From positions 24,338 through 88,337 of the forward strand of contig JBMZDF010000001.1 in assembly GCA_049614105.1 (NCBI GenBank): DNA of 64,000 bases. Direction: 5' to 3'. Below the pieces are notes generated by a model. The model worked only from the letters and a program-made list of their open reading frames with translations. It searched no databases and was not told where the DNA came from. Below, piece after piece: positions 16,168-59,905 of this stretch. The DNA comes from Candidatus Promineifilaceae bacterium (GTDB lineage Bacteria > Chloroflexota > Anaerolineae > Promineifilales > Promineifilaceae). Made by a program: the position numbers and the translations under genes. How positions within the stretch are numbered: the stretch's first letter is position 1; every line of letters begins with the position of its first letter.

Positions 16168-16179
16168 GAAAAAATACGA

Positions 16180-16627
16180 TTATTGTTTGGTCAACATATT
16201 CCACAGAAATTGCACGGGGGATACCGTCTCGATTTCAACCGCCACTTCACCTGTCAGCGCCTCACTCAGTTCGACACTATCAGACAACACATCAATATGC
16301 GCCACAACGGAGCCATCAGTATGTGGCACAAAGCGATGCACGTAGGCTGGCAGCACGCGCAAATCATTGCCATCCGCATCTTGCAAATGCAACCGCGCAC
16401 CGACCCCTGTCATAAGCGGTGGCAGCCCGTCGTCAAACTTGGCGGTGATCAGTCCGTCTCGTGTTTGGTCAAGCTGGCCACTGACTTCGTGCAGGGCGAT
16501 GTTACCTGTGGCGAACCAAATAAGCCACGCCACAAACAGCGGCGCAACAAGCAAAAGCCCCAGCAGTCCGTTGTGATAGCTGTCGGCTTCTAACGAGCGC
16601 AGAGATCGGGTGAAAGGTAGAGACATA
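16180..16627 (-). CDS. Short HlyD-like membrane-fusion/adaptor protein
   Basis: The start is taken at MSLPFTRSL. It has one N-terminal TM (LLGLLLVAPLFVAWLIWF) and then a beta-rich region loosely resembling the HlyD C-terminal barrel. The longer track ORF to 16890 overlaps the divergent gene. Confidence 0.45.
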
Positions 16628-43389: not shown

Positions 43390-44865
43390 TTAGGCTGTGG
43401 ATGGTTTAAGCGACTCGCGTAGCTGGGTTACATTTAGCTCTAAACGTTTGAAAAAATCTGTTTCGACAATCGCATCCAGCCGCTCTTTTTTCTGGTGATG
43501 ATTGATTTTGATATGCAAAGCGGCTACCTGTTCCTTCAAATCGGTTTCACGTTCCCACACCTTGCCAGACATTTCGTTGAATGCGTTGGCAAGTACAACC
43601 AGTTCATCAAATGAGTTGACCTGTATTTTGTCCGCTTTGTTATCGGCCGAAACCTGTTGAACACCTTGCAAAAGTTGGGCAATCGGCCGATGAATAAGCT
43701 GTGTTAAATAAATCGCCAGCGCAGATGCGAGAATCACCAAAAACAACGTCACAAATAAAACACGCATCCGCATTTGAATGGCTGGCGCAACCACCTCTTC
43801 ACGTGGAACCGTGATACCAAGCCGCCAGCCAGTTGCTTCAATCGGGGCATACACCAATAACGAAGTATCGTTGTTGGTATCGTTGTTGTAATAGCCAAGC
43901 CCTGTGACATCTGAAAGCATCGAATTGACAAGCTGACGAAATTCGGCCGAACCTGTCTCCTGCAACTTTATCGCCTCTTGCTCCCCTTTTGTTGCGTCAT
44001 TGTCTTGAAAATCGGGGTGCGCAATAATGCCGCCCGTATGATCGATCAGAAACCCATGCCCCGCGCCTTCGAGCACTTGGATATTGAGGGCGATCTCCTT
44101 GAGCGACCCAATCGTGACATCATGCGACATAATGCCCAAAAAATCGCCGCCGCTGCCGATCAACGGTTTTGAGGCGGTGACCATCCAGCCTGCCCCGGCA
44201 AAATCGACATAGGGGGCGGTCCATTGCAACGCATAAGATGGATTATTAGCTGGCTCCGCGACCGTATAAAAAACAATTTGGGTTGGGTCCCACGCATCAG
44301 GATAATGATCATTACTGGCCCAAGGATAAAGACGCATCATACCCTCTGGCGTCGTCATGTAGATCCACTGTGTATCTGGGCTGACACCCTTAATGCCTTC
44401 AAATATCGTGTCGAGCTGTTCCGTTTGGATGATCGTTTTGGCAACTGTGGCGTCCACATCGGCCGATGCCCAGTAAACATTTGAGAGCGTGTCACCCAAA
44501 CTGTCGGCCCCTCCGCTGCGATTATAGTAATCGTCTAGCCCTAGAATGCCGCGATTGTCTAGCTGATAACGCATTAGCTCAGTGGTCACTATCTCGTCAT
44601 CAATTGGCGTTTCTAACACTTCCACAGCCTGATGCGCGGCAATCTGTGTGGTGTTGGCGACCTCGTTCAAACGAATATTGATTTCTTCCGCACGGGCGGA
44701 CGCAAGCTGCAATAAGTTTGCTTCCATTTGAGCGGTCAATGCTCGCATACTTTGGCTTGTAAATAGAATCGAAACGATCAGAATGGGGATCACTGAAAAG
44801 GACAACAGCGCAATTAAAATCACACGAGTGAGGGAGCGTTTGAGCCAAGACAATATCGTATTCAT
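43390..44865 (-). CDS. Cache-like sensor and HAMP protein with no recognisable output domain
   Basis: The architecture is TM, an extracytoplasmic ~330-aa region, TM, HAMP (IHRPIAQLLQGVQQVSADN...FDELVVLANAFNEMSGKV) and a short coiled coil. Confidence 0.7.
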   Translation of the reverse strand: MNTILSWLKRSLTRVILIALLSFSVIPILIVSILFTSQSMRALTAQMEANLLQLASARAEEINIRLNEVANTTQIAAHQAVEVLETPIDDEIVTTELMRYQLDNRGILGLDDYYNRSGGADSLGDTLSNVYWASADVDATVAKTIIQTEQLDTIFEGIKGVSPDTQWIYMTTPEGMMRLYPWASNDHYPDAWDPTQIVFYTVAEPANNPSYALQWTAPYVDFAGAGWMVTASKPLIGSGGDFLGIMSHDVTIGSLKEIALNIQVLEGAGHGFLIDHTGGIIAHPDFQDNDATKGEQEAIKLQETGSAEFRQLVNSMLSDVTGLGYYNNDTNNDTSLLVYAPIEATGWRLGITVPREEVVAPAIQMRMRVLFVTLFLVILASALAIYLTQLIHRPIAQLLQGVQQVSADNKADKIQVNSFDELVVLANAFNEMSGKVWERETDLKEQVAALHIKINHHQKKERLDAIVETDFFKRLELNVTQLRESLKPSTA

Positions 44866-44875
44866 AGGTTTTTTC

Positions 44876-46522
44876 CTAAACTAATATCAGCTTGTTGTCC
44901 ACATCGATTGCAACAGCTTCTTGTTGCATGTCGCGCTTTAGAGCGGTCGCAAAGTGCAACACATCTTCTAAATTGGAGTCTAGGGCGCGTTTTGACACAA
45001 AAGTGCGGACGATCGTGACAACCTCGGTCACCAGCCCACCCTGATCGCTTTTCCAAATGCCGTCCGCCCGCGAACTTGTTGCGCCACCAAAGACAGACCC
45101 AAGAAATGACAACGTATCATTCACCTGCGTCTCGTTATTGGTTTGCTGATCAACCGTTATCGTTGAGGGTACAAAAATCGCGATGGTGTGATTGAGCGAA
45201 AGGCGGCGGAACAGTTCGGCGATGGTGTGAGATAGGGTTGATGCGGTGCGGTTGGTGGGGAAATCGGCCGAAAATGGCAGCACACATTGGAAAGTAAACT
45301 GCGCCGCCTGTTGTGCATCCTCTGGGTTTGTCTTGTTGAGCAAGACCAGCCGTTTTTGCTGTGGTGGCGTTGGAATCGCCTGCCACTTGTCACGACACGT
45401 TTGCGCAGAAGCTGCACAGGTTGTGATGCTGATCACAACAGAGGCGCTTGCGATCACCTCGCGTTGCAACGGATCTGGGTGATGACCTAGATCGATCAAG
45501 ATGTAATCAAAGCGTGCTTTTAGCTCCGTGAGCAAAATATCGGCATAAACAGCGGGTGGATAATCAACAGATTGGTGAGCATGGAATAACATAATCCCGT
45601 TGCTCAACTGTTGAATGATGCCAAACCCACTGGGGGTTTCGGTTACGATAGTTGCGGATAGCAGATCGCGATAGGGGTTTACTTCTGTTTTCCAATCCCA
45701 GATGACAACGCTGGGGCTGTTTTCGGCCGAATCCAAAGCGCACAATGCAAGCTGCGCCGCAATTAACGAGGCACCATCTCCCGCCGCCAAGCCGTCAACC
45801 GCCCACACGTGACCCGCCCGTCGCCCACCATGACATAGGCAATTTCTTAGCTGTTTGCTCAGGTATCGCGCCACGGCGGTTGCCAAATCGTGCTGAACAG
45901 ACTGCATCGCAACAAATGCTTCAATCGGCCACAGCATCACTGTACATGCTGTCACCGCTTTGTAGGTTTCCTGCGGCTGCTGATTGCCAAACAGCTCCGC
46001 CACGCCCAGCCATTCCCCCTGCCGCAAATACCCGTTTAAGGTTTGCGCCCTGTTGCCGCTAATCTGCACTTTGCCAAGTAAACCGCTGCGAACCACCCCG
46101 ATAAAAGGAAATGATTTCCCCTGCCAGGCCAGCACTTCGTTGGTCTGTAGTTTGCGGACACGGCATATTTGCTGCATTTTTTCCAGCGTTACCTTTGACA
46201 ATGTTTGCCCAATATCGGTATTGGACAGAAATTCGTCATCAGGTTGTGCTAGTAATGCTTGAATCGGTGCTGGCAAATTGCGAACGTTGGCTGCGCGTAG
46301 CTGAAAACGGGTCACAAAAACACGCTCGTTATTGACAAGCTGTTCAACGAGTTTGGCGCGTGTCACCAGTTCTTCGATGGTTATGGCAACTTCGGCCGAA
46401 GGGAGATTAATCCGTTCCGTTATTGCACGAACGCTCAATCTTGGAAATCGCGTGACGCAGCGCAAAATATCTTGCTCTACAGGGTTCGCGTTTAGAAGGT
46501 CGAGGGTCGATAAATACGACAT
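44876..46522 (-). CDS. Multidomain protein: wHTH, cNMP-binding-like domain, degenerate ParA/MinD-like domain and an unknown C-terminal domain
   Basis: The N-terminus is paralogous to the 46528 protein. The beta-roll-like segment reads LQTNEVLAWQGKSFPFIGVVRSGLLGKV...GEWLGVAELF. The Walker A position reads GLAAGDGAS (no Lys) and FDYILIDLG is Walker-B-like. Confidence 0.55.
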   Translation of the reverse strand: MSYLSTLDLLNANPVEQDILRCVTRFPRLSVRAITERINLPSAEVAITIEELVTRAKLVEQLVNNERVFVTRFQLRAANVRNLPAPIQALLAQPDDEFLSNTDIGQTLSKVTLEKMQQICRVRKLQTNEVLAWQGKSFPFIGVVRSGLLGKVQISGNRAQTLNGYLRQGEWLGVAELFGNQQPQETYKAVTACTVMLWPIEAFVAMQSVQHDLATAVARYLSKQLRNCLCHGGRRAGHVWAVDGLAAGDGASLIAAQLALCALDSAENSPSVVIWDWKTEVNPYRDLLSATIVTETPSGFGIIQQLSNGIMLFHAHQSVDYPPAVYADILLTELKARFDYILIDLGHHPDPLQREVIASASVVISITTCAASAQTCRDKWQAIPTPPQQKRLVLLNKTNPEDAQQAAQFTFQCVLPFSADFPTNRTASTLSHTIAELFRRLSLNHTIAIFVPSTITVDQQTNNETQVNDTLSFLGSVFGGATSSRADGIWKSDQGGLVTEVVTIVRTFVSKRALDSNLEDVLHFATALKRDMQQEAVAIDVDNKLILV

Positions 46523-46527
46523 AGTGA

Positions 46528-46806
46528 TTAGTTAAAGAAGGAGTCTAGCAACCCACCCGACGGGCGTTTCCTGGGCGTATTGCCCTTTGGTGAGATTTGA
46601 ACTGAATAACGCAGCTCGCTCTCATCATGCAAAATGAGTTTGGCGGAACGCACCATCTGGCTGAGCACTTGGTCGAGTTCTCTAAGCGGGATGCGTGTTC
46701 TACGGGCAATTTCGCGTTTTGTTTGAAATGGGCGTCGTACTAAACAGCGAATCACATCCTGTTCGGACGCAGAGACTTGTAGTAGATCGAGTGGGCTAAG
46801 CAACAT
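46528..46806 (-). CDS. Small winged-helix protein, paralog of the N-terminus of the 44876-46522 protein
   Basis: MLLSPLDLLQVSASEQDVIRCLVRRPFQTKREIARRTRIPLRELDQVLSQMV aligns with LSTLDLLNANPVEQDILRCVTRFPRLSVRAITERINLPSAEVAITIEELV. Confidence 0.6.
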   Translation of the reverse strand: MLLSPLDLLQVSASEQDVIRCLVRRPFQTKREIARRTRIPLRELDQVLSQMVRSAKLILHDESELRYSVQISPKGNTPRKRPSGGLLDSFFN

Positions 46807-46814
46807 AGTAATCT

Positions 46815-48074
46815 TTATAGTTGTGAGCTGACTGGGGCATGTGCTTGTGAAAAAGGGGCGGGTTGTTTTTGATGTACCATGTTGATAATCAGGTTTGCGG
46901 CATGGTTGCATTCGCGCATGTCGGCGAAGTCGGCCGCCATGCGCTGTGCGTTTGTTTCTAACGTTTGATCGCTGGTTAATCGGCCGAAACTTTCCCGCAG
47001 CCGCGCTTCGGTCACATCCTCAACAGGCAGGCAAATAGCCACGCCAGTCTCCGCACAACGTTCAGCCACCAAAAAGTTCTCACTGGCCGTCACAATTTGC
47101 AACATCGGCAGCCCGTGGCTCAACGCAGCAAGCATCACGCTTGATGTCCCCGTTGCGATCACATAATCAGCCCGTGGGAAAATTAGTTGATGCGGAATAA
47201 AGCGGTCAACAAAAAAGTTGTCTGGTTGGGTTGCTGTGACTAAATCTGAATCGTTGGTTGAAACAATGACGCGTACAGGGCGATCGGCCAGAACGGATAC
47301 AAGGGTTTCCCAGAAATCAGGTATCCCCTCCCTCATGTGATTTTCTTGTTCAAATTGGCGCGACCAGCGATTATCGTGTTGTACAAAACAGATCGGCATG
47401 TCGGTATCAAGTGCCGCTGCCAGCGTGCGGTAAGCATTTTGGTCAACAGACGGATACCATGTGCAAGCACCGACCAGCCGTACTTTGGTTGGTAAGCGCA
47501 AGTGATTTGCCTGCAAGGCTGAAATTGAGCGCAGTAAGTATAAATCGCCTAAAAGCGGGAATTGGTCATAGTCGCCTTGATACGGCGTGTGGCCGCAAAT
47601 AGAGGCGATTTGGTTGGCGATGTGCATGACGGTCAGATAGCGTAAGCCGCTGTCGGTATGAACTTCATCAGGTGTACTGTTGGGCAGCGGCGCATTTTCG
47701 CAAGTCGGCCACATATACGTGCCTAAACCAAGTACTGCAACTGGAATGTGATGCCATTTGGCGAAAAGAATCGCTCCCAGCGCCATTGAGGAGGCGACGA
47801 TTGCATCTGGTTGAAATACGGCTGCTGCTTCACGAACAAGCGCCACTTGCAACACGTTCGGTTTGGTGCTGCCCCACAAACTGACCCGAAAAGCGACACG
47901 GCTCGGCTCGCTGCCGGTATTGACGCGAGGGCAATTTGCTTCGTCCAGTTCAGAATCAAACCCTGATCCCGTTACAAAGCCGACGGTGTGCCCTAATGCC
48001 TGAAGCGATTGGGCAACGCGAATGGCTGGATAGATATAACCGTGGCTGGCAAGTGGACAAAACAAAAAGCGCAT
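46815..48074 (-). CDS. GT-B fold glycosyltransferase (GT1/MGT-like)
   Basis: MRFLFCPLASHGYIYPAIRVAQSLQALGHTVGFVTG is typical of the GT1 N-terminus. The C-terminal donor-binding region reads ATGTSSVMLAALSHGLPMLQIV...AERCAETGVAI. An aaaggag RBS precedes the chosen start. Confidence 0.7.
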   Translation of the reverse strand: MRFLFCPLASHGYIYPAIRVAQSLQALGHTVGFVTGSGFDSELDEANCPRVNTGSEPSRVAFRVSLWGSTKPNVLQVALVREAAAVFQPDAIVASSMALGAILFAKWHHIPVAVLGLGTYMWPTCENAPLPNSTPDEVHTDSGLRYLTVMHIANQIASICGHTPYQGDYDQFPLLGDLYLLRSISALQANHLRLPTKVRLVGACTWYPSVDQNAYRTLAAALDTDMPICFVQHDNRWSRQFEQENHMREGIPDFWETLVSVLADRPVRVIVSTNDSDLVTATQPDNFFVDRFIPHQLIFPRADYVIATGTSSVMLAALSHGLPMLQIVTASENFLVAERCAETGVAICLPVEDVTEARLRESFGRLTSDQTLETNAQRMAADFADMRECNHAANLIINMVHQKQPAPFSQAHAPVSSQL

Positions 48075-48122
48075 AAGGTTGCTCCTTTGAAAATAGCGGT
48101 TGAACAAACAGCCTGTCAGTTC

Positions 48123-51100
48123 TTACGCCGCGCGAACCAGCGGCAAAACGGTTAAGAGCGATGGTAGTTTGCTGGGTGCGATGTAGCGCACTAAGCCATA
48201 GCCAATCCCTGCTAAACCTTGTATCAACCCTGCCGCCTCAACTGCAAGCGGCAAGCCACATTGAATCGCATCTATGGTTAAGTTAGCGAGGTGTTGTGCG
48301 GCTAGTTGTTCAGTTGTGTGCTGTAGGATTGGGTCGGCTAATATTTCGGCCGATGTGTGCAAAAAATCGAGTGATCCAAATAGCCCATTTGCTAATGAAT
48401 GATCCCGTATTTCAGCATCCGAAACCTGTCGGATCGCTTGGTCAATTAAGTTGGAAGCCTGCACCGTTCTGTGTTCAGGCGGGAGCGACAGCCAACCGAG
48501 CGCATACCCGATCGCGCCATCATGCCAATTTGTCGCGGTTGGCATCGCTGGCACATGTTCAAGTAGTTGATTGGCCGCAATCGCAAAACGAGGCTGTCCC
48601 GCCCACTGTGCCACCCGATATAGCTCTGCCGCGATACCGATGAGTCCGCTTGCATAGCCTGTCCCCAAGCGCACATGGGTGGGCAACTGCCACGCCTCCA
48701 CGCAAGGCTGTAGCTGTTGCAGCAGCCGCTCCCCCGCTTGAACGGCGTAGGCCAATAAGTCCTCAGACGGGTCTATTTCGTTGAGACACCAGAGTGCGGG
48801 TATCAGACCTGCTGTGCCAGACAAAACGTTGAGATAGCCGTCTGAATCGATTTTATGCGAGCTGAGTGTTGCCCACGCATGCGCCTGTGACAAAAGCGCT
48901 GGATCGTCAAATTGTTGTCCAAGACGGGCGCAGGTTGTGATGTATCCCGCAATCCCGTCATATGCGCCCAACAGGGTCCCGTTGAGATGTGCCTCAATTG
49001 AACTCGTATTGGCAAGCGTGGCTTGCAGCGGGGCAATTGTTTTACGGGCTAGATTTTCCCAGCGGACATTGTTTGTGACGCGGGCAAGTGCGGCGAAAAA
49101 CAACGCGATCCCACAGCTACCGCTGTAAAGCGTCAGATTGTTTGGCCCAACATAGTGACGATGCCGATAGCTAGATACAGAAATCCATGCCAAGGAAGTT
49201 CCATCATCAACCGCTTGCGCTGCCAGCTTGTCGCCAATCGCACAGGCCAATTCAAGCGGTGACTGTGTTCGTTTTGACGGAGCAGGGGGCGTTAAACTAT
49301 TTTCGCGGGTTGAGCTACAGGCGAGCGTTGCCCGAATGTACCAAAGTTGTTCACGACAGCCACGATCGCTGATTGCGTCAACGCGAGCCATCGCTGCATC
49401 TAATCCGCTGCGATCTGTGACCTGAGAAAACCGTTTGCCGCTGCTTGCCCAAACGTCACGCGAGTCAGCTTGCGTGTAGAAGTACGGCACATCAAATGTG
49501 CGTAGCTCGCGCTTTTCATCGGCAATAAAGTTGGCATACTGCTCGCCTTGATTCACACGCCCCCATAATAGGTCGAGCGTGCGCTCTTGGGTTAAGCCAC
49601 GACGCAGTTGGTCGGGCTGTCGCAGTTGTCGCAACAACATGTCGTAAATCATTGTGTCGCGGAACAAGAATCGGATACGTGCGCCAGCAAAGGTTGAAAG
49701 TTGTTGACGTAAAGCGGCCTGATTATTTTGTGCAATGCGGTAGGCGGTGCGGAAGCCCTGTTCGATTTGGTCAATGTAGTCAGTTGGATCTGCTTGGGTT
49801 TGGTTGAATTTCGGCCGATTTTGCGCCTCATCCCCCGCCACAGATACCCAAATTTGTTCATAACGCATCTGGTCACTCTGTGCATCAAGTACCTTCAACC
49901 GCAGCGCCAGTTTTGTTGCATTCCCACCAAGCCCCCCATCCGCCGCATCATCAAACTGATTCGGCCGAATGTTTGGCAGCAACAACGTTGTGATCACTGA
50001 ACTATAGAAACGCGCATACGCCTGTTGTTCAGCCTCGCTCAAATCGTCTGTCTGGTCTGGAATATCAGGGTGAAATAAGCCCTCAAGATCGATCAGAATC
50101 GGATGTGCTCCGCTGGCAATCACGTTGTCGCTGTGGAAATCTGTGCCGCGTACCAAATATAAAATTGCAAGCAGTGCGCCTAACCGTTCATAGAACTGGG
50201 CGACCTCACCACTTGTTAAACAGCTTTCGTGGGTGACAAATTCGACCCAGCCATAGGCGGGACGCTCAACAATCGTGAGCAGCCGCAGCGGCGGCAGTTG
50301 TCCCTGTCCATGCTGATTAAACCAGTTGAGCAAAGTCTGAAATTGTGCATCAACCGTCAGCGGTTTGGGCTTGTAAAGAAGACGTGCGCCGTTGCTATCG
50401 TGCAGAATATAAACGGTGCGTCCGCTATCGTGTCGGTCGCTAACTGAGTCCTGAATCTGTTGAATAGCGGGCGCAGAGTCTGTGAAAAATGTTTTGGTCA
50501 AGGTTGACCAATCGGCCGCCAGCCGATCCAAAAATTCGACGCGAGCCGCTAGCCAATTTGTGGTGAAGTCATGCAGCAATCGGCCGAGCACAGGATACGC
50601 CTTTAACAGCGTCAACGCCCCCGCCGCACTGCGATACAGGTCTAAAAATGATTGAAAACGCGCTTGTGAGGTTTCCCCAGAGAGCTGTTTGAGAAAACGG
50701 GCTGACTGTAGTTCGGTTACAACAATCGGCGTCAAAATATCATCACAATCGTCAAGCAGGGCGGTCACCCATAGGGACAATGCTGTTTCAGGAAAAGCTG
50801 CTTGACCAAGGTGTGCCGCCGTTGTTGCGTAAGCGTCATACAGGTCATTTAGAATTGAATAGATGAGCGGGCGCACAATAACCAAGAGCGTCTCGTCAAG
50901 CCGTGCTTGTTGTGCGGTTGAGGTGAGAGAGGGCGTTTGACAGGTTGTATAGCGTTGTTTTAAGGCTGTCACCCAGTTTAGATTGGGGGTTCGTGTTTTG
51001 AGCTGGCCCAGCGGTTCACTGAGAATGCCAACGAATTGAGGTTCTGACAGGTTATCTTTTGCCAAACGTTGGGCGAAATCGGTCGATTGCGTAAATGTCC

Positions 51101-51239
51101 CCACTTTACGCCATTTGTTGTAACGAAAACGCCCCACGCCTGTGACGGGCTGAGTACTTAGCTGTTGTAATTCGGCCGAATTACAAGACGCAACCCGCTC
51201 ACTCAATGTCAACGCATCAAACCAAGCTTCATCCATCAT
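48123..51239 (-). CDS. lanM: Class II lanthipeptide synthetase (LanM): dehydratase domain plus a LanC-like domain with non-canonical active-site positions
   Basis: LLYKPKPLTVDAQFQTLLNWFN and HSDNVIASGAHPILIDLE belong to the LanM dehydratase. The C-terminal LanC-like repeats include GTAGLIPAL, GYASGLIGIA, NWHDGAIGYALGW, SLANGLFGSLDFL and GLIQGLAGIGYGLVRY. Confidence 0.85.
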   Translation of the reverse strand: MMDEAWFDALTLSERVASCNSAELQQLSTQPVTGVGRFRYNKWRKVGTFTQSTDFAQRLAKDNLSEPQFVGILSEPLGQLKTRTPNLNWVTALKQRYTTCQTPSLTSTAQQARLDETLLVIVRPLIYSILNDLYDAYATTAAHLGQAAFPETALSLWVTALLDDCDDILTPIVVTELQSARFLKQLSGETSQARFQSFLDLYRSAAGALTLLKAYPVLGRLLHDFTTNWLAARVEFLDRLAADWSTLTKTFFTDSAPAIQQIQDSVSDRHDSGRTVYILHDSNGARLLYKPKPLTVDAQFQTLLNWFNQHGQGQLPPLRLLTIVERPAYGWVEFVTHESCLTSGEVAQFYERLGALLAILYLVRGTDFHSDNVIASGAHPILIDLEGLFHPDIPDQTDDLSEAEQQAYARFYSSVITTLLLPNIRPNQFDDAADGGLGGNATKLALRLKVLDAQSDQMRYEQIWVSVAGDEAQNRPKFNQTQADPTDYIDQIEQGFRTAYRIAQNNQAALRQQLSTFAGARIRFLFRDTMIYDMLLRQLRQPDQLRRGLTQERTLDLLWGRVNQGEQYANFIADEKRELRTFDVPYFYTQADSRDVWASSGKRFSQVTDRSGLDAAMARVDAISDRGCREQLWYIRATLACSSTRENSLTPPAPSKRTQSPLELACAIGDKLAAQAVDDGTSLAWISVSSYRHRHYVGPNNLTLYSGSCGIALFFAALARVTNNVRWENLARKTIAPLQATLANTSSIEAHLNGTLLGAYDGIAGYITTCARLGQQFDDPALLSQAHAWATLSSHKIDSDGYLNVLSGTAGLIPALWCLNEIDPSEDLLAYAVQAGERLLQQLQPCVEAWQLPTHVRLGTGYASGLIGIAAELYRVAQWAGQPRFAIAANQLLEHVPAMPTATNWHDGAIGYALGWLSLPPEHRTVQASNLIDQAIRQVSDAEIRDHSLANGLFGSLDFLHTSAEILADPILQHTTEQLAAQHLANLTIDAIQCGLPLAVEAAGLIQGLAGIGYGLVRYIAPSKLPSLLTVLPLVRAA

Positions 51240-51331
51240 TCAACCACCCCGTAAACCTAACAATAAAAATAAACAATGGCCTACCTTGAGGGTAAGCCAT
51301 TGCCTGCAATTAGATTATTGCTACCAGGTTT

Positions 51332-51571
51332 TTACGCCTTTTCCTTCTTCGTGAAGGTGCAGCCTCTGGTGCAAATGCAGATGCCTCGACCGCCAGCAAT
51401 TTGCTCAAGCTCTTCATCAGACAATTCAGCCATGTTTGAAGGGGCGTCTGGAAGGCCTGCTTGCTGGTCTGAGGTCAATGAAGCGCGAAATTCTTCATCT
51501 TTCCATGCGCGAACGACGTCGTCTGAGGTCAAACCAATATCTTCTAGTGTGTGTTCAGTGTTGTTAGACAT
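51332..51571 (-). CDS. lanA: Lanthipeptide precursor (79 aa) with a mersacidin-type leader ending in GG and the 18-aa core RGICICTRGCTFTKKEKA
   Basis: An aggag RBS lies 6 nt upstream of ATG 51571. The leader ...DDVVRAWKDEEFRASL...ELSDEELEQIAGG resembles the mersacidin leader (IIRSWKDPFSR...). The core has 3 Cys and 3 Thr. Confidence 0.8.
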   Translation of the reverse strand: MSNNTEHTLEDIGLTSDDVVRAWKDEEFRASLTSDQQAGLPDAPSNMAELSDEELEQIAGGRGICICTRGCTFTKKEKA

Positions 51572-51672: not shown

Positions 51673-51951
51673 TTACTCAAGAAAAATAATGCGTTTGTCC
51701 AATAGCAGATGATGCCACCAGCCATCTTCCGACGGAATGGTGTCACTTTGCCAGTCAGCTTCAACGCCAAAAACACCAAAGCGATCCCCATGTCCGTCTG
51801 TCTTTTCAGCAATAAATCGTTGGGCGGTTTCTACATTTTGAAAAACGCAACCACCCAGATAATCATCGCTGCGGCCAACTTTTAACAGGGGTCTTCCCCA
51901 TACTTCGGCTTGTGCTTTGTATACATTTCTAGGACCAACTGTATAGAGCAT
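51673..51951 (-). CDS. Hypothetical 92-aa protein at the head of the lan operon
   Basis: A ggaga RBS precedes the start. I see no recognisable domain. Confidence 0.5.
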   Translation of the reverse strand: MLYTVGPRNVYKAQAEVWGRPLLKVGRSDDYLGGCVFQNVETAQRFIAEKTDGHGDRFGVFGVEADWQSDTIPSEDGWWHHLLLDKRIIFLE

Positions 51952-52237: not shown

Positions 52238-53317
52238 TTGGCACAGACTCTACTTATGTCTTTGGAATCATATTTAAACGTTCAACTAGCAACCTATCGT
52301 GACAAACCGCAGCCAACCGTCTTTATAAACCAAGCCTCGATTCAGGTTTGGCGTGAGTATGCGTCTGTTGCGGAGCGACTGGGGGCGTATGTTGTTTTGG
52401 CGCAACATTTGTTGCAATTACAGTTTCCAGTTGAGATGGGCATACAGCAGACCCCTGCTTATCAAGCGGCCATCCGTCGCGGCATTCGGCCGAAATCCAA
52501 CCACGCACTACAGCTAAACGCTCCCCAAGCGGTGCATCTTTCTTTGCATGAAGGCGTGGGGGGAACCGTGCCGCTGATTCACGTGCCGCAACGGGCGGAC
52601 TTTCTAAAAGTGGCGGCAGCGCTGGCGTTTCGCAACGAACCGCAAACGTTTAGTGCCGCCATTGGGGCGTTTTTGGTGAATGGGTACAGCAATTGGGATC
52701 GGATAGAGCGCAAACAGGTTGAATGGGTGCGTACACGGAATTCGGCCGAATGGGGCCATTTATTTCAACAGCTATTGGCCGATCGAGCAAGCTATCAAGA
52801 CAGCTTCATGATTATCACAAAGCAGCCATACAGCGGCGTAGACAGTCACGTTGCGGGAATGTCGCCGCAGCGATGGCTGGCCCGGTCCCACACAATCCGC
52901 GTGGCCCATGAGTCGGCCCACCTATTTACAAAACGAGCCTACGGGCAGCTTAATCACCATCTACTAGATGAATTAGTCGCTGATTATTGCGGGTTGGTTA
53001 CCGCATTTGGAACCTATGATGCGTCGTTAGCTCTCCGTTTGCTTGGTATCGACACGACACAGCGCCCCACAGGCCGCGTATCGCACTACCTGCCTCCCAT
53101 GCTGCGAGAGGATGAAATCTATCGCCAGCTTGCAACAATCGTGACACGGGCCGCACATACCTTGCAGGCGTTCACCTGCTGGGTTTGCCCCGATCCAACC
53201 TCTATTTCAGCGATGCGGCTGTTGCTGCACACAATTTCACAAGCATCACTGCAATCTCTTGCCTGCACAAACGCGCTGGCCGCGCTTCAGGCTTGCTATC
53301 AAAGGAGTAGAAAATGA
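52238..53317 (+). CDS. Hypothetical protein with an HExxH...E motif, a possible zincin-like metallopeptidase
   Basis: The motif is VAHESAHLFTKRAYGQLNHHLLDE. It is the first gene of the exporter operon and its ATGA overlaps the next gene. Confidence 0.4.
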   Translation: MAQTLLMSLESYLNVQLATYRDKPQPTVFINQASIQVWREYASVAERLGAYVVLAQHLLQLQFPVEMGIQQTPAYQAAIRRGIRPKSNHALQLNAPQAVHLSLHEGVGGTVPLIHVPQRADFLKVAAALAFRNEPQTFSAAIGAFLVNGYSNWDRIERKQVEWVRTRNSAEWGHLFQQLLADRASYQDSFMIITKQPYSGVDSHVAGMSPQRWLARSHTIRVAHESAHLFTKRAYGQLNHHLLDELVADYCGLVTAFGTYDASLALRLLGIDTTQRPTGRVSHYLPPMLREDEIYRQLATIVTRAAHTLQAFTCWVCPDPTSISAMRLLLHTISQASLQSLACTNALAALQACYQRSRK

Positions 53318-54078
53318 GTTCTTCCATTTTTCGCAAGGTCTCAATTGACCGACTGTCATCGCCTGAGCAGCTTGATATGCTGTTAGAGGTGGTTAATCCG
53401 CGTAGCTGGCTTGTTTTTGTTGCACTGGTTGTTGTGTTGATCGGTGGGCTGGCGTTCGGTGCGTTTGTTCGCGTGCCGACCACTATTTCGGCCGAAGGCG
53501 TCCTGCTCAATCATGGGAGCCTTGTGCCAATCGATGCACCTGCCAGCGGCTATGTCAGCAACCTATCAATTGACGAGGGCGACGTCATCGCCGTTGGTCA
53601 GCAGCTTGCCATGCTGGAAACAGAAGCAGGGCCGCGACCGCTGTTTAGTATGCAGGATGGCCGTGTTATTCAACTGCTCATTGCGCGTGGGAACACGATT
53701 GAGGTTGACGATCTGCTGCTTGTTCTAGAGCCGCTCGACGAAACGATTCTCCCCTCCGTGCTGGCGCTCTTGCCTGCGGATCAGGCGGACGAAGTAACGG
53801 CCGATACCCTTGTTGACGTGTCAATTGCAAACCAGTCAATCGTTGGGCAAGTTCGCACAGTGAGCCAGTTACCGATCAATGCGGCGGCACTCACGCGCCT
53901 TGTGGGCAGCGATAACGTGGTTGATCAGCTAGCAACGATGACCGACCATGTTTTAGTGGATATTGCATTAGCCAACACACACGATACCAACATACCGTCT
54001 GGCGTGATTGCTGATGTTGATTTTCGCATCGCAGAACAACAAATTTGGCGTTATGTTGTGCAGCAAGGAGGAGAATAA
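53314..54078 (+). CDS. HlyD-family adaptor of an NHLM-type bacteriocin secretion system
   Basis: MSSSIFRKVSIDRLSSPEQLDMLLEVVNPRSWL, a TM segment and a lipoyl-like segment (GYVSNLSIDEGDVIAVGQQLAML) follow the pattern I recall for the NHLM bacteriocin secretion protein. Confidence 0.7.
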   Translation: MSSSIFRKVSIDRLSSPEQLDMLLEVVNPRSWLVFVALVVVLIGGLAFGAFVRVPTTISAEGVLLNHGSLVPIDAPASGYVSNLSIDEGDVIAVGQQLAMLETEAGPRPLFSMQDGRVIQLLIARGNTIEVDDLLLVLEPLDETILPSVLALLPADQADEVTADTLVDVSIANQSIVGQVRTVSQLPINAAALTRLVGSDNVVDQLATMTDHVLVDIALANTHDTNIPSGVIADVDFRIAEQQIWRYVVQQGGE

Positions 54079-56291
54079 TGAGGCTATTTCGACGCATTCG
54101 CCGAACGCCAACGGTGCTCCAAATGGAAGCTGTCGAGTGTGGCGCAGCGGCGCTTGGCATTATTTTGGCCCATCATGGCAGCTATATCTCCCTCGAAGAA
54201 CTGCGCAATGATTGTGGTGTCAGCCGCGATGGGAGTAAGGCCAGCAATATTGTGCGTGCTGCCCGTCGTTTTGGTTTTGAAACACGCGGTTTTCGTGCTG
54301 AGCCAGCGCAACTATGGGATCTGCCTATGCCAGCCATTATTCACTGGAATTTCAATCATTTTTTGGTGCTTGAGGGGCATGATGACGATACCGTTTATCT
54401 GAATGACCCTGCGTTTGGTTCGCGCAAAGTGACGATGCAGGAATTGGACATGGCGTTTACGGGGGTTGTTATTACGTTCGAGCCGACTGATGCGTATCGG
54501 CCGATGGGCAAAAAACCAACCCTCGTTAGCACACTTCGCAAGCATCTTGTTGGCACTGAAAAAGCGATTGGCTACGTTGTTTTAGTCAGCCTTGCGCTTT
54601 TGGTGCTAGGGATGTTGGTTCCCACATTTTCAAGCTTTTTTATCGATCAAATCGTCGTTGCCAACAAAGTTGCTTGGACCAGACCGCTGTTAGGCATCAT
54701 GCTGTTGTTTGCCATGGCAACCGCTGCGCTTGTGTGGTTACGCCGCACCCATTTGATGCGGCTTGAAGCACGTCTCTCAATTGCCAACTCCAGCCGCTTT
54801 TTCTGGCACATTCTACAGCTCCCAATCACATTTTTTAATCAGCGCAGTGCTGGCGACATCAATGCCCGCATCGGTCAAAATGATCATGTCGCTACGTTAA
54901 TCTCCAATGATTTGGCGGCAACCTGTATTAATCTGCTGCTGATTGGGCTGTATGCGCTCTTGATGTGGCAATACAGCATCCTCCTAACGTTGATCACCAT
55001 AGTTGCCGCGCTAGTCAATTTTGTGACGCTGCGCGTGATGTCGCAGCGGCGCATGCAGCACAGCCAGCGGATGGTTCAAGAACAGGGCAAACTGCTGGGC
55101 ACAACGTTTGGCACGCTCCAGCAAATCGAAACGGTTAAAGCGGGCGGTGGCGAAAACGACGCCTTCGCCAAGTGGGCAGGGTATCACGCCAAACTGGTCA
55201 ACGTGACGCAGGAAATTGCGTTGAGCAGCAGCATTCTGAACGTTGTCCCTGCGATGTTGCAGCAAATCACATTAATGCTGATTTTGGGCATTGGCGGGTG
55301 GCTGATTATGCAGAATCAGATGACGCTTGGGTTTCTGCTAGCGTTTCAGATTTTAGCCAATCGCTTTTTGCATCCCGTTCGTGAGCTGATGGGTTTTGGG
55401 GCAAAGCTCCAAGAAACGGAAGGTATTTTGAACCGTATGTCAGATGTTCTCAACTATGCACCTGAGGTAAATATTGTGCTTACATCGGCCGAACCAGAGA
55501 ACGTTGAAGATCTGCCACCATTGGTTGGCGGGCTTGAAATACGCGATCTGACGTTTGGGTACAGCCGACTAGACCCGCCGCTGATTAAAGGGTTCTCGCT
55601 CACGTTAAAACCTGGCAAGCGTATCGCGCTTGTGGGCAGCAGCGGCAGTGGAAAATCAACCATTGCGCGACTAATTGCGGGTCTTTACACACCTTGGGAA
55701 GGCTCGATCCTTTTTGATGGGGTGGAACGTGCAGCATTTCCTGCCGTGATGCTCAGTAACGCCGTGCGATTTGTCGATCAGGAGATATTTCTGTTTGCCG
55801 ACTCGATCCAAAACAACATTACGTTGTGGAATGATGAGATTGCACAGAAACAAGTGGTCCAAGCCGCACAAGATGCGGTGATTCACTCTGAGATTTTGCG
55901 GCGAGAGAATCAGTATCAATTTATGTTGACGGAGGGCGGGGCAAATCTAAGCGGTGGACAGCGGCAGCGAATTGAGATCGCACGTGCGCTTGTGAGCAAT
56001 CCGCGCTTGCTGATTATGGACGAGGCGACGAGTGCGCTCGACCCGATTACAGAGCTAGCGATTGCCGATAATCTGCGACGCCGTGGGTGTACCTGTCTGA
56101 TTGTGGCGCACCGTTTGAGCACAATTCGTGATTGCGATGAAATTATTGTGTTGGACAAAGGGCGTGTGGTTGAGCGCGGGACACATGCCGATCTGTGGCG
56201 TGCAAATGGCGTTTATGCACGTCTATTGCAAAGTGATGGGGTGGAATCAGAGCACCTCATGGAGTCGCTTTGGAAAAAGGTGACGGGATGA
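54078..56291 (+). CDS. C39-peptidase ABC exporter (NHLM-type peptidase/ATP-binding subunit)
   Basis: MRLFRRIRRTPTVLQMEAVECGAAAL, NHFLVLEG and LNDPAFG form the C39 triad context. The NBD has Walker A GSSGSGKST, signature LSGGQRQR and Walker B LIMDEATSALD. An aaggaggag RBS precedes the start. Confidence 0.85.
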   Translation: MRLFRRIRRTPTVLQMEAVECGAAALGIILAHHGSYISLEELRNDCGVSRDGSKASNIVRAARRFGFETRGFRAEPAQLWDLPMPAIIHWNFNHFLVLEGHDDDTVYLNDPAFGSRKVTMQELDMAFTGVVITFEPTDAYRPMGKKPTLVSTLRKHLVGTEKAIGYVVLVSLALLVLGMLVPTFSSFFIDQIVVANKVAWTRPLLGIMLLFAMATAALVWLRRTHLMRLEARLSIANSSRFFWHILQLPITFFNQRSAGDINARIGQNDHVATLISNDLAATCINLLLIGLYALLMWQYSILLTLITIVAALVNFVTLRVMSQRRMQHSQRMVQEQGKLLGTTFGTLQQIETVKAGGGENDAFAKWAGYHAKLVNVTQEIALSSSILNVVPAMLQQITLMLILGIGGWLIMQNQMTLGFLLAFQILANRFLHPVRELMGFGAKLQETEGILNRMSDVLNYAPEVNIVLTSAEPENVEDLPPLVGGLEIRDLTFGYSRLDPPLIKGFSLTLKPGKRIALVGSSGSGKSTIARLIAGLYTPWEGSILFDGVERAAFPAVMLSNAVRFVDQEIFLFADSIQNNITLWNDEIAQKQVVQAAQDAVIHSEILRRENQYQFMLTEGGANLSGGQRQRIEIARALVSNPRLLIMDEATSALDPITELAIADNLRRRGCTCLIVAHRLSTIRDCDEIIVLDKGRVVERGTHADLWRANGVYARLLQSDGVESEHLMESLWKKVTG

Positions 56292-59206
56292 GTGAAAAGC
56301 AAACAACGTCGTCAGTTGCCGAAATGCTGTTGCTGCATTTGCGTTACAAAGAGGTTGCGGGGCTTGTCAATCAGGGAGGAACAGAATGGTTGTTAGATGA
56401 TCCGAGCCGTGCGTTTATTCTTTATGATGGTTCGGCCGATCTGTTTGCCGTCCCGTTGCAGGCGGGACGTATTGTGGGGGCGCGAACACATCTCATGCAT
56501 TTGGAAGCGGGCGACATTGCGCTCGGTTGTGGAACGTTGGGGGAGACGCTTGGCTATCTACTCGTCAGCGGGCATCGCACAAAGGTGATGCAAATCGGCC
56601 GAAATCGACTCGACAAAATCGCCAACAACGAAGGGTTTCAAACTGAGATTGCCACCATGCTCAATCGCTGGATTGTGAACCTGACCCACGCGGTCGTCAC
56701 CGATCTGCCCCCCAAAGAAAGTATCAAATTAGCCGCCAATCATGCGCTGCCGCTGAAAAAAGGAACAAGCGCCAGCGTCCAGCGTGGCGTTCTCTGGATC
56801 AAGCACGAACAGGGCAAATCTCAGTTTGGCAATTTGGAACACATGCCTCATCTAAACGGGGTGGGGCGCTGGCCGCTTGGCGAGCGTCATTGGATTCGGG
56901 CTTTAGAAAATGGCCAGCTATCGAGCATCGACACAAACAAATGGCTTGAGAAGGGAGCTGATTGGGCTGACGTTGACCAGTTTCATCAGTTTATTTCAGG
57001 GGTGCTTGAAAAGTGGCTGTTAGATTCGGCCGAAACACAAGCCCGCCAGCTTGCCGCACAGGTCACCGCCAGCCAGCAAGCGATCAATCAGGGACTGCGC
57101 CAGCTTGCACAGCCGTTGCTGCCAAGTCAAGAGACGCCGCAACGCCAATACACCAAACGCGAAGCGCTACAGGCAACGTATCAGCTTGTTGCAGACACCA
57201 TTGATGCTGACATTGTGATGCCAGCCAGCAAATCTTGGTGGAGTTCAACCGCAAAAATTGCGGCGGCCTCACAGCTACAGGCGCGTCGTGTGGCGCTCAA
57301 AGGGGAATGGTGGCGTGAAGATCACGGCGCACTGATTGGCATTGTTGGAGAAAGCGAGGATGAAGTTGCACTGCTTCCGACTCGCCGAGGCTACAAACAA
57401 ATCAACCTGTTTACAGGCAGTGAGCAGGTTGTTGATGAGGCGGTTGCGACCGCGATGTGGCCCGTTGCCGACATGCTTTATCGTGGTTTAGCGGATCGGC
57501 CGCTCACGGCATGGGACCTGTTGCGTTTTGGCATGAAATCGACAAAACGGGATGTGGTCAAGATTTTCGCGCTAGGCATCGCCATTGGGCTGTCCGGGCT
57601 TGCGCTGCCGCTGGCAACCGCGTTTATGGTTGATACGATTATTCCCATTGGACAGCCTCAACTGCTTGTGTCGATGATGTTACTGCTGCTGCTTGTCATT
57701 GGCGCGTCCGCTAGTTTTCAGTTCGTTCAGGATTTGTTCGTGCTGCGATTACAGATGCGGTTAAGTCGTGATCTCCAAACGGCAATTTGGATGCGTGTGT
57801 TGAATCTGCCCGTTTCATTTTTCAAACGGTACACGGCGGGTGAACTAGGCAAACGTGTTTTGGGCGTGCAAATGATTCAGCAGGTTGTATCTGGCATCTT
57901 GCCAATGATGTTGATTGCCGTCTTTTTCGCGCTTTTCAACTTTGGGTTACTGCTGTACTTTGATATACGGTTGGCCGCCGTTGCGATGCTGCTTGTGTTA
58001 TTCTCCAGCAGCGTTTCATTCACCATTGGTCTGCGTCAGCTTTCTGCGCGTCGTCAGGTCGCGCATAGTGAGGGGGAATTGTCGGGGCAAGTGTTACAGT
58101 CGTTGGAAGGAATCGCGAAGTTGCGCGTTTTTTCGGCCGAAGGGCGTGCATTCGCCAACTGGGCACAACAGTTTGGGGCGCTCAAACAGCTAGAACTCTC
58201 TATCGAATCTAAAAACAATCAGCTAAGCGTCTTTAACGCCGCCTTTGGCATCGTCACTAATGTCGCATTATTTGCAATGGTCGTGGGGCTGGGACAAGGC
58301 AACATGACGGTCGGCCAGTTTTTGGCATTCAACGCGGCGTTTATTCAATTTCTGTTTGGGATGTTGACGTTGAGCGATGGCGCGATTGAGATTTTAGACA
58401 GCATCCCACTTTATGAACGACTTCGGCCGATAATCGAACAACAGCCAGAGCTAACCCAAGACAATCTCTCGCCGGGCAAGCTAGCAGGCATGATTAGCTT
58501 GCAAGATGTTCAATTTAAGTATCACGATGACGGCCCGCTTATTTTGCAACAGCTCTCATTGACCGTTCAGCCGGGCGAGTTTGTTGCGGTTGTTGGCCCA
58601 TCTGGATCTGGAAAATCAACGTTGTTGCGCTTGCTGCTTGGTTTTGAAGCGCCCAGCGTGGGCGCGATTTATTTTGACGGCAATGATGCCGCAATGCTGA
58701 ACTGGCGTGAAGTGCGGGCGCAGATAGGAACGGTGTTGCAGGATGGGCAAATATTGCCTGAGAGCATTTTTCAAAACATTGTCGGTGTCGCATCTAGTTT
58801 GACACATGATGATGCATGGGCCGCGTTAAAGATGGCGGGTTTAGAACGGGACGTTCGTGCGATGCCAATGGATCTTAGCACCGTGCTGACGCAAGGCGGG
58901 GGAACGCTTTCAGGTGGGCAGCGGCAGCGGTTGCTGATTGCACGGGCGCTGGTTCGCCGCCCGCGCATCATTCTTCTGGACGAAGCAACAAGCGCCCTCG
59001 ACAACAAGACACAAGCCGAGGTCATGAAAAGCGTTGAGGCACTGCAATCAACGCGCATCGTCATCGCACATCGTCTGAGCACCATCCGCAACGCCGATCG
59101 CATCATCGTGATGGATCATGGGAAAGTGGTCCAAGAAGGCACTTATCAACAGCTATTGCGGGAAGATGGTTTATTTGCTGAGCTGGCCAAACGCCAGCTT
59201 GCATGA
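56288..59206 (+). CDS. ABC exporter subunit with an N-terminal cNMP-binding-like domain (NHLM-type ATP-binding subunit)
   Basis: An N-terminal ~150-aa beta-roll-like region (FILYDGSADLFAV...GDIALG) precedes the TMD and NBD (GPSGSGKST, LSGGQRQR, ILLDEATSALD). Its ATGA overlaps the upstream gene. Confidence 0.8.
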   Translation: MSEKQTTSSVAEMLLLHLRYKEVAGLVNQGGTEWLLDDPSRAFILYDGSADLFAVPLQAGRIVGARTHLMHLEAGDIALGCGTLGETLGYLLVSGHRTKVMQIGRNRLDKIANNEGFQTEIATMLNRWIVNLTHAVVTDLPPKESIKLAANHALPLKKGTSASVQRGVLWIKHEQGKSQFGNLEHMPHLNGVGRWPLGERHWIRALENGQLSSIDTNKWLEKGADWADVDQFHQFISGVLEKWLLDSAETQARQLAAQVTASQQAINQGLRQLAQPLLPSQETPQRQYTKREALQATYQLVADTIDADIVMPASKSWWSSTAKIAAASQLQARRVALKGEWWREDHGALIGIVGESEDEVALLPTRRGYKQINLFTGSEQVVDEAVATAMWPVADMLYRGLADRPLTAWDLLRFGMKSTKRDVVKIFALGIAIGLSGLALPLATAFMVDTIIPIGQPQLLVSMMLLLLLVIGASASFQFVQDLFVLRLQMRLSRDLQTAIWMRVLNLPVSFFKRYTAGELGKRVLGVQMIQQVVSGILPMMLIAVFFALFNFGLLLYFDIRLAAVAMLLVLFSSSVSFTIGLRQLSARRQVAHSEGELSGQVLQSLEGIAKLRVFSAEGRAFANWAQQFGALKQLELSIESKNNQLSVFNAAFGIVTNVALFAMVVGLGQGNMTVGQFLAFNAAFIQFLFGMLTLSDGAIEILDSIPLYERLRPIIEQQPELTQDNLSPGKLAGMISLQDVQFKYHDDGPLILQQLSLTVQPGEFVAVVGPSGSGKSTLLRLLLGFEAPSVGAIYFDGNDAAMLNWREVRAQIGTVLQDGQILPESIFQNIVGVASSLTHDDAWAALKMAGLERDVRAMPMDLSTVLTQGGGTLSGGQRQRLLIARALVRRPRIILLDEATSALDNKTQAEVMKSVEALQSTRIVIAHRLSTIRNADRIIVMDHGKVVQEGTYQQLLREDGLFAELAKRQLA

Positions 59207-59254: not shown

Positions 59255-59905
59255 TCAATAAGGGGCCAAACTAACAACGCGATTTTCCCACGCCCAGACA
59301 ACTGCCTCAGAGCGATTGCCTACGCCCGGCAGCTTAGAATAAATATTGTTCATGTGATTTTTGACTGTGCCAGGGGTGATAATCAGCCGATTGGCGATGC
59401 GTTGATTACACCATCCGTGCGCCGCCAGTTTCAACACTTCACGCTCACGCTCGCTGAGTTCGCTCTGCACCCCTTTACGGCGCTGTAAGATGATTTTTTG
59501 TACGGCCGTGCTTAGGGCGGGTTCCCCATGATAAACATCGCGAATACTTTGCATGACGCGGCGCGGCGGCTCATCTTTGAGTAAGTAGCCAGCCAGTTCA
59601 AGCGTGAGGAATTTTTCAACAAGGAAGCTGTCACATAAGCTTGAAAGCAAAATAATTTTTATCGAAGGTTGCTGCTGACGTAATTGCTCGGCAACTTTTA
59701 GGCCGTTCATATCGGGCATTTGAATATCAATGAGGAGAATATCAAGGGGATGCCGTTTTGCCAGTGCGATAGCCGCGACACCGCTGCTGGCTTCCGCTAC
59801 AAAGCACAGGTCTTCTTGGGTGTCTATAGCCGTTTTCAGCCCTATACGGACCAAATGATGGTCATCAGCAATTGCAACGCGAATAGGAGGAGGTATTTTG
59901 TACAT
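59255..59905 (-). CDS. NarL/LuxR-family response regulator
   Basis: The REC domain reads IRVAIADDHHLVRIGL...ILLIDIQMPDMNG. The HTH reads LSEREREVLKLAAHGWCNQRIANRLIITPGTVKNHMNNIYSKL. Confidence 0.85.
   Translation of the reverse strand: MYKIPPPIRVAIADDHHLVRIGLKTAIDTQEDLCFVAEASSGVAAIALAKRHPLDILLIDIQMPDMNGLKVAEQLRQQQPSIKIILLSSLCDSFLVEKFLTLELAGYLLKDEPPRRVMQSIRDVYHGEPALSTAVQKIILQRRKGVQSELSEREREVLKLAAHGWCNQRIANRLIITPGTVKNHMNNIYSKLPGVGNRSEAVVWAWENRVVSLAPY

Follow-up and report, generated by a model that had tools for sequence, protein, structure and literature searches.

The LanM-type protein encoded in the 64-kb stretch of Candidatus Promineifilaceae DNA analysed in this study (the window) probably acts as a Thr dehydratase whose C-terminal domain has been kept as a scaffold, with canonical ring closure not being carried out by this protein, a reading to which we give a probability of roughly 0.6. 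The gene, lanM (48123..51239, minus strand), was recognised as class II lanthipeptide synthetase-like from its open reading frame (ORF) and its Pfam and NCBIfam matches. It is a genuine class II (LanM-type) synthetase gene with an unbroken ORF of 1038 codons, and lies inside a cluster for a peptide made by the ribosome and modified after translation (RiPP). Residue numbers are those of its 1038 aa product unless stated otherwise. As judged by alignment, this product has lost from its cyclase the Cys-Cys-His zinc site and both residues that act on the enolate, the protonating His and the stabilising one. A sequence-only reading of the window had already described a cyclase without canonical zinc ligands and catalytic His, which alignment to LicM2 and comparison with 90-150 homologues confirm.

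Against NCBIfam TIGR03897 (LanM) the protein scores 680.7 bits, the cut-off being 304. A DUF4135 dehydratase (kinase/eliminase) domain with its catalytic residues covers aa 215-589 (49473..50597, minus strand; Pfam PF13575, E 2.5e-103), a LANC_like alpha/alpha-toroid domain covers aa 699-1029 (48153..49145, minus strand; Pfam PF05147, E 2.4e-34, 118.9 bits), and the adjacent gene encodes a precursor with a GG/GA leader and a core holding Ser/Thr and Cys, all as in other class II LanMs; the features of the class that are missing are a Cys-Cys-His (or Cys-Cys-Cys) zinc site and the enolate-protonating His. The best sequence match in the PDB (phmmer) is LicM2 (6st5), at E 2e-89 and spanning aa 163-1031, and NisC is reached by profile search at E 3.5e-9. 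The AlphaFold2 model, built from a 93-sequence alignment, has a mean pLDDT of 92.6 and a pTM of 0.93, and its top structural matches in Foldseek are LicM2 (TMt 0.76) and CylM (TMt 0.70). The LanC-like fold is thus retained in the model although the canonical cyclase apparatus is lost. The Gly-rich LanC repeats are preserved as well, as had been noticed from the sequence, with seven invariant LanC Gly residues in place (G707, G710, G808, G811, G952, G1008 and G1011).

Cyclase and dehydratase active sites

Protonation of the enolate is the role of His212 in NisC and His835 in CylM, and the enolate oxygen is stabilised by Tyr285 in NisC, with His, Lys or Asn at the equivalent position of LanM enzymes (PMC9934072). 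In the window, the enolate-protonating His is replaced by Ser864 (codon 48648-48650) within the motif GYASGLIGIA (aa 861-870; 48630..48659, minus strand). W905-H906-D907 (48519..48527, minus strand; codon of aa 906 at 48522-48524) is found instead of W-C-(H/K/N), which places a His where the first zinc Cys would be and an Asp where the enolate-stabilising residue would be, and A950-N951 (48387..48392, minus strand) is found instead of the C-H zinc ligands that correspond to NisC Cys330/His331. The phmmer alignment to LicM2 pairs tgyaSgligia with tgfsHgltgia, nwHDgaigy with ywCHgapgi, and hslANglfg with hslCHglig. The same registration is given by a local-pair MAFFT alignment of the C-domains, anchored by two sister proteins that still read GWCHG / TWCDG and HSLCHG, so that the columns and codons assigned to Ser864, His906 and Ala950-Asn951 in the sequence-only reading hold.

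Beyond these positions, three changes were added to those listed earlier, namely Asp907, Asn804 and the deletion of a loop of ~20 aa preceding W-C-H-G, the last shared by the window protein and its two closest relatives. Asn804 (48828..48830, minus strand) replaces an Asp conserved in 89% of the family (YLNVLSG vs HLDILSG), in a column that is probably the equivalent of NisC Asp141. Residues of the His864, W-C-H and C-H types are present in LicM2 and in ~88% of related LanMs, and because these cyclase positions are 85-96% conserved in canonical relatives, their loss is not a matter of chance. Conserved Cys/Cys/His residues elsewhere in the domain were looked for and none were found: the remaining Cys and His residues of the window C-domain are restricted to its lineage, with the exception of His947 and Cys994, which occur throughout the family and do not sit at ligand positions.

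The dehydratase half is canonical, in agreement with the sequence-only reading. The catalytic residues D268, H270, K290, D367, H369, N372 and D384 are present, as are R523, R527 and T529 just outside the DUF4135 domain, and alignment to CylM finds equivalents of all of its residues D252, H254, K274, D347, H349, N352, D364, R506 and T512. In the clade of seven described below, 11/11 catalytic positions of the dehydratase do not vary, other than between Thr and Ser at 529. At aa 541 (about 49615-49617), in the 'HPD' motif that follows the dehydratase core, Gln is found in 7/7 clade members as against His in 96% of other LanMs; this H541Q change, in the dehydratase/linker region, is the sole strong signature of the clade, and Gln also replaces Glu at aa 538.

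Relatives of LanM and the state of their cyclase sites

No relative of more than 36% identity was found, either by a word-indexed search of 5.8 billion proteins or by exhaustive phmmer against 1.84 billion representatives. The nearest relative is 34-36% identical and synonymous sites are saturated, for which reason the retention of family-conserved columns was used instead of the ratio of non-synonymous to synonymous substitution (dN/dS). The window protein belongs to a clade of seven with P0002 (from locus L001), the protein of locus L006 (repaired across a frameshift), P0113, P0115 (from locus L018), P0117 and P0118, with neighbour-joining bootstrap support of 95% for the clade and 88.5% for its inner five members. 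Those members that are named are Ardenticatenia, P0002 coming from an Ardenticatenaceae metagenome-assembled genome (MAG), and Promineifilaceae are likewise Chloroflexota of the class Ardenticatenia. The gene clusters of the clade are built on the same plan as that of the window. The clade is nested among ordinary zinc-bearing class II LanMs. A sister relationship of the window protein and P0002 was supported by only 22% of bootstraps and was not relied upon.

Taken in the order window, P0002, L006, P0113, P0115, P0117 and P0118, the conserved Asp position (804) reads N, N, D, D, N, D, D; the proton-donor His (864) reads S, Q, N, T, H, T, G; the first zinc Cys (906) reads H, C, C, C, F, A, R; the second zinc Cys (950) reads A, C, C, C, G, D, G; and the zinc His (951) reads N, H, H, H, T, S, S. 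A complete cyclase site is therefore present in 0/7 members: the zinc ligands are kept but the His is gone in 3/7, the His is kept but the ligands are gone in 1/7, and everything is gone in 3/7, including the window. As different lineages keep different parts, their ancestor had the whole site and the losses are parallel, which points to parallel decay and not to a redesigned site, and is the pattern expected of a dispensable active site within a domain that is still needed. In the LanC domain, a single conserved substitution sets the clade apart, Gln962 (6/7 members; Thr in the window), and the domain therefore gives no sign of a re-engineered site.

Erosion is also stronger in the cyclase half, as the window protein keeps 60% of family-conserved LanC columns against 81% in the two sisters (median of other LanMs, 89%), and 72% of family-conserved dehydratase columns against 81-83% in the sisters. 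Among the three closest members compared, the window copy shows the greatest erosion. Selection on the cyclase site was probably relaxed at or near the base of the clade, with independent decay in each lineage thereafter. In L006, a frameshift in a G9 homopolymer (about 12620-12632 of that locus), exactly in the G-x-x-H-G motif, divides lanM into 906 + 180 aa; either the cyclase domain is truly disrupted there, or the frameshift is an error of metagenome assembly or sequencing.

The slot adjoining lanM offers further evidence. It holds a GT1-family glycosyltransferase gene in the window, L001, L006 and L015, a DUF6875 gene in L016, and a stand-alone LanC gene in L018 (L018 11260-12462, minus strand). 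This LanC, of 400 aa, has a complete zinc site of the CCG type (GFSHG, GWCRG and HLCCG), adjoins the zinc-less LanM P0115, and is closest to ProcM-type (CCG) cyclase domains (41% identity), not to the LanC-like domains of the clade itself. Recruitment of a complete LanC beside a zinc-less LanM suggests that cyclisation has been given up by the domain of the LanM itself and that rings are still wanted, at least in L018. The sequence-only reading had left three options, namely non-enzymatic or differently catalysed ring formation, a dehydratase-only role, and new chemistry. These do span the correct space, and within it the comparative data favour the dehydratase-only role, because decay is parallel with no conserved replacement and because L018 has a separate, complete zinc-bearing LanC.

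Loss of zinc ligands is not confined to this clade, and the uniqueness implied earlier does not stand, since zinc-less LanM-type enzymes have been published and at least one ligand is missing in 12/92 homologues (13/93 counting the window) and in 16/147 of the closest representative LanMs. Such proteins make up about 11-13% of related LanMs and are spread over several independent lineages. They include P0051 of Phormidium sp. ETS-05 (CP051168.1; locus L012), a zinc-less LanM of an independent lineage with a 2-Cys core, AMHTSCPVHCVALARS; P0083 of a Rivularia MAG (L013), with two Cys-free Nif11 precursors; and P0058 (L014), also of an independent lineage, the core of which is very Ser-rich and Cys-free. 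For genome mining, this means that annotation as LanM (here at 680 bits, above the cut-off) is no guarantee of a lanthionine product, about 1 in 9 related LanMs being without a zinc ligand.

Precursor peptides, proposed mechanism and alternatives

The precursor gene lanA (51332..51571, minus strand; TIGR03898, 65 bits vs a cut-off of 23.5) encodes 79 aa, with a mersacidin/lichenicidin-type leader ending ELSDEELEQIAGG and the core RGICICTRGCTFTKKEKA (51335-51388), which has three Cys, three Thr and no Ser, in line with the Cys-containing core described in the sequence-only reading. No further mersacidin-type precursor was found in the window. The corresponding cores are RLQDDDCTCTQGCTGTKGFTAF in L001, GWTCIGSCGNTQIR in L006, ADWCVGTCKQTCNKESSFTKE, VEDDCTKNSCTRTCKRSSEFTKE, RDVCVGTCNQTCNKGSKFE and LEDSCQQGSCTDTCNKKSKMS in the four precursors of L015, MQSGGCKCGCWGGTVTWTDSETLQ in L016 and RCVCCTIIISLTTIESEVA in L018. 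The pattern CxCTxGCTxTK is common to the window and L001, and three Cys are conserved across all four L015 precursors. Most cores from clusters with GT1 end in F/G-T-K or S-K, L006 (ending NTQIR) being the exception, and it may be speculated that this shared C-terminus could be a glycosylation site.

If LanM is a dehydratase with a scaffold domain, the leader, of the C39-ABC/GG type, would bring LanA to LanM, where the intact DUF4135 domain would phosphorylate the three core Thr and eliminate phosphate to give dehydrobutyrine (Dhb). Dehydration would then require the zinc-less toroid, kept as a structural or peptide-binding part of the enzyme on the precedent of CcaM discussed below, and the toroid would perform no zinc-dependent thia-Michael ring closure. 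The Cys residues would be handled otherwise, by a LanC that acts in trans (one is encoded in the L018 cluster) and would here lie elsewhere in the genome, by slow spontaneous addition or by a GT1-linked modification, and the HExxH-containing DUF7005 protein and the ABC/C39 system would process and export the product. Zinc-ligand mutants of LctM continue to dehydrate, with poor cyclisation (cited in PMC11356792).

Several observations weigh against this reading. Every clade core has 2-3 Cys in patterns that are partly conserved, which suggests that the thiols matter and that some catalyst is to be expected. Spontaneous addition to Dhb is slow, and the Thr-only core of the window would yield only Dhb, weakening the non-enzymatic route. 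Neither a second LanM nor a LanC that could act in trans was found within the 64-kb window. The three clade members with all three zinc ligands may still bind zinc. Finally, of 65 highly conserved LanC columns, 48 are retained by six or more of the seven members, and such strong constraint on the domain is also compatible with some remaining catalysis of a non-canonical kind, as in class III enzymes.

The main rival is accordingly a metal-independent cyclase, in which the zinc-less LanC-like domain would still add Cys to Dhb and LanM alone would give a (methyl)lanthionine peptide. This appears unlikely, but has more in its favour than any other alternative: apart from the conserved core Cys, the spacing T-R-G-C / T-Q-G-C (window and L001) resembles an ordinary i,i+3 methyllanthionine ring, the fold is strongly conserved and confidently modelled, and class III domains without the ligands (Ser726/Phe770/Asp771 in ThurKC) still cyclise (PMC10604976). 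The former catalytic positions, however, differ in almost every clade member with no conserved substitutes, the complete stand-alone LanC of L018 would be redundant, and phylogeny makes the domain a decayed one of class II and not one of class III type.

It is quite improbable that lanM, or the cluster in its entirety, has lost its function and is decaying by drift into pseudogenes. Such drift would account for the window LanM being the most divergent of the three closest members in both halves, for the frameshifted orthologue of L006 and for the lack of any relative above 36% identity among 1.84 billion representative proteins, but it sits poorly with the unbroken ORF, the invariant dehydratase residues, the high confidence of the model and the persistence of the clade through deep divergence. 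All of the cluster genes compared (13/13) are unbroken and syntenic with relatives at 30-73% identity, and the homopolymer frameshift of L006 may be a sequencing error. Still less can be said for a rebuilt metal or acid-base site formed by His906 with H895, H923, H961, H983 and the conserved His947, restoring cyclisation or allowing different chemistry. The first zinc Cys has changed specifically to His, a competent zinc ligand, and several lineage-specific His are present in the window C-domain, yet none of these is common to any other clade member, Ala/Asn stand at 950/951, and an Asp at 907 would be unfavourable for stabilising the enolate. Misregistration, with the zinc ligands lying elsewhere in the domain, can be set aside almost entirely, since although W-C-H faced a gap in one global MAFFT run, showing the region to be sensitive to alignment method, the HMMER alignment to LicM2 and the local-pair MAFFT with the sisters agree on W905-H906-D907, and the domain has no other conserved Cys/His available.

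A broader proposal, which can be put forward only tentatively, is that these genes represent an Ardenticatenia RiPP family in which LanM would be a pure Thr/Ser dehydratase and the Cys-rich core would be finished by a swappable partner encoded next to lanM, or else that they include the first metal-independent class II cyclase. In the former case, the version with GT1 would make a glycosylated (S- or O-linked) dehydrobutyrine peptide and not a conventional lanthipeptide, and would constitute a new subclass of RiPP, one whose synthesis involves a peptide glycosyltransferase of the GT1 family. Should GT1 act on the peptide, this would provide a GT-B-type peptide glycosyltransferase and a new scaffold from a phylum barely explored for natural products.

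Comparison with known systems and organisation of the cluster

The best functional analogy for a LanM that only dehydrates, with a scaffold domain, is CcaM (LanMbC; dehydrazoles, carnazolamide pathway), in which DUF4135 is likewise fused to a LanC-like domain without zinc ligands; there, dehydration needs the zinc-independent cyclase domain, although ring formation does not take place (PMC10676384). CcaM clusters differ in that YcaO/dehydrogenase genes co-occur, cores contain azoles and the leader is not needed (PMC10676384), whereas the window has a classical GG leader and, as partners, GT1, DUF7005 and a 92-aa protein. No YcaO match was found in the Pfam-scanned ORFs at 34.8-46.9 and 59.3-61.7 kb or in the cluster genes at 46.8-59.2 kb of the window, or in the gene lists of six related LanM-bearing loci, and no azole-core association of the LanMbC kind is seen. 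The conserved GG leader may also argue against leader-independent dehydration in the window. In addition, the CcaM cyclase domain is described as class III-like by its authors, a comparison made here from the description alone, whereas that of the window is a secondarily decayed class II domain.

LicM2, of the mersacidin/lichenicidin type, shares with the window LanM its two-domain architecture, the leader family TIGR03898 and the logic of C39-ABC export, but has GFSHG, WCHG and LCHG where the window has Ser, His-Asp and Ala-Asn together with the loop deletion. Class III LanKC enzymes such as ThurKC also have a LanC-like toroid without Cys/Cys/His ligands, and their metal-independent cyclase domains show that a zinc-less LanC fold can support ring formation (PMC10604976). 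They differ in having separate lyase and Ser/Thr-kinase domains in place of DUF4135, and the grouping of the window domain is with those of class II. Pfam found neither a kinase nor a lyase domain in the window LanM, and the match to NF038151, confined to aa 747-894, scores just 56 bits where the cut-off is 575.

A LanM-like protein without zinc ligands and with a Cys-free Nif11 core has been described in Pseudanabaena galeata (OA858_24670; PMC11356792), the name cyanotin being that of PMC7268733. The likeness lies in a zinc-ligand-free LanM-like protein near a GG-leader precursor and an NHLP-type ABC exporter, to which P0083 (Rivularia) and P0058 are comparable. The cores of cyanotins are free of Cys, which makes loss of the cyclase self-explanatory, whereas in the case of the window, L015 and P0051 (Phormidium), the cores that go with the zinc-less LanM do contain Cys. 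The clostridial CA_C0082 and its homologues are also LanM-derived and without the zinc motif (PMC10301443), but are truncated (670-728 aa), are without the catalytic residues of the dehydratase as well and have a connection with agr quorum sensing, whereas the dehydratase of the window is complete.

Zinc-less LanM-type enzymes as such are therefore already known from CcaM/LanMbC, Pseudanabaena and CA_C0082. What is new is a distinct Ardenticatenia clade nested among ordinary class II enzymes, with stepwise, parallel decay of the active site, Cys-rich conserved cores and conserved uncharacterised partners (GT1, DUF7005 and the 92-aa protein), one member having swapped GT1 for LanC. Nothing on this type of cluster was found in the literature searched on glycosylated class II or Ardenticatenia lanthipeptides. 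The clade is a well-posed and cheaply testable question more than a categorical surprise, its seven proteins forming a natural series in different states of decay that asks what a LanC-like domain is used for once catalysis is lost, whether substrate binding or support of dehydration, and how Cys-rich cores mature without catalysis by that domain.

With regard to the cluster itself, the GT1-family glycosyltransferase (GT-B, EryCIII/MGT-like; 46815..48107, minus strand; Pfam and NCBIfam) adjoins lanM downstream, with a probable ATG start at 48074, and matches CalG1, YjiC and OleD in the PDB. Between lanA and lanM is a terminator-like hairpin (51271..51305, minus strand) with a 15-pair stem followed by the T-run ATTTTTATTG, which looks like the attenuating terminators typical of lantibiotic operons.

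Directly upstream of lanA is a conserved 92-aa protein of unassigned function (51673..51951, minus strand) with the motif PSEDGWWHHLL, 59% identical to its L001 orthologue. A protein of a Candidatus Promineifilaceae bacterium MAG matches it with full identity. It is found upstream of lanA in 6/6 full clusters (window, L001, L006, L015, L016 and L018), with homologues of 92-114 aa at L001 9261-9548, L006 9115-9390, L015 3341-3640, L016 6458-6781, L018 7136-7456 and L008 10001-10345. The family, always directly upstream of a mersacidin-type lanA, is marked by YTVGP..., GGCVFQ and PSEDGWWHHLL, and only eight homologue clusters were found among 5.8 billion proteins. No Pfam, NCBIfam or PDB sequence match was obtained, and an AlphaFold2 model with a pLDDT of 87.7 gave nothing below E = 1 in Foldseek against the PDB; its role could be in immunity, as a chaperone or in modification as a factor of a new kind. 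Used as a marker, it revealed no further clusters in JGI metagenomes, and the genome collection gave only the known Ardenticatenaceae locus.

The DUF7005 protein (52238..53317, plus strand; Pfam E 4.5e-88) is divergently oriented and carries HESAH at aa 224. This HExxH motif is conserved as HECTH and HECAH in the orthologues of L001 (16426-17559) and L006 (14531-15706), respectively, and the protein is a candidate metallopeptidase for the cluster, probably one that uses zinc. No sequence in the PDB matches it, and no mention of DUF7005 was found in the literature searched. L001 has an extra S9 prolyl-oligopeptidase-type gene (14441-16402, plus strand) between GT1 and DUF7005 that the window does not have, and the L016 cluster, in which the DUF6875 protein beside lanM (10364-11035, minus strand) has 223 aa, is without DUF7005. 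The export module (53314..59206, plus strand) comprises an HlyD-like adaptor (53314-54078; TIGR03794), a C39-peptidase ABC transporter (54045-56291; TIGR03796, 1008 bits) and a second ABC subunit (56270-59206; TIGR03797, 820 bits).

On the other side of the cluster is an accessory module (42543..46806, minus strand; Pfam) of a ParA-like ATPase (42543-43349), a dCache/HAMP protein of 491 aa (43390-44865), a cyclic nucleotide (cNMP)-binding protein of 548 aa (44876-46522) and a small winged helix-turn-helix (wHTH) protein (46528-46806). The module is syntenic in L001, L006 (without the dCache gene), L016 and L018, with identities of 39-73% to the L001 orthologues. Together with a LuxR-type response regulator (59255-59905, minus strand), it keeps its synteny with the RiPP genes across as many as five divergent clusters, and is an unusual conserved regulatory or accessory set for a lanthipeptide cluster. 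Identity between window and L001 orthologues ranges from 30% for HlyD (the lowest), through 34% for LanM and 35% for both GT1 and DUF7005, to 73% for ParA (the highest). Upstream of the cluster, at 34831-37503 (plus strand), an 890-aa protein combines an N-terminal, DNA-binding Trans_reg_C domain with an NB-ARC/AAA_16 STAND ATPase domain.

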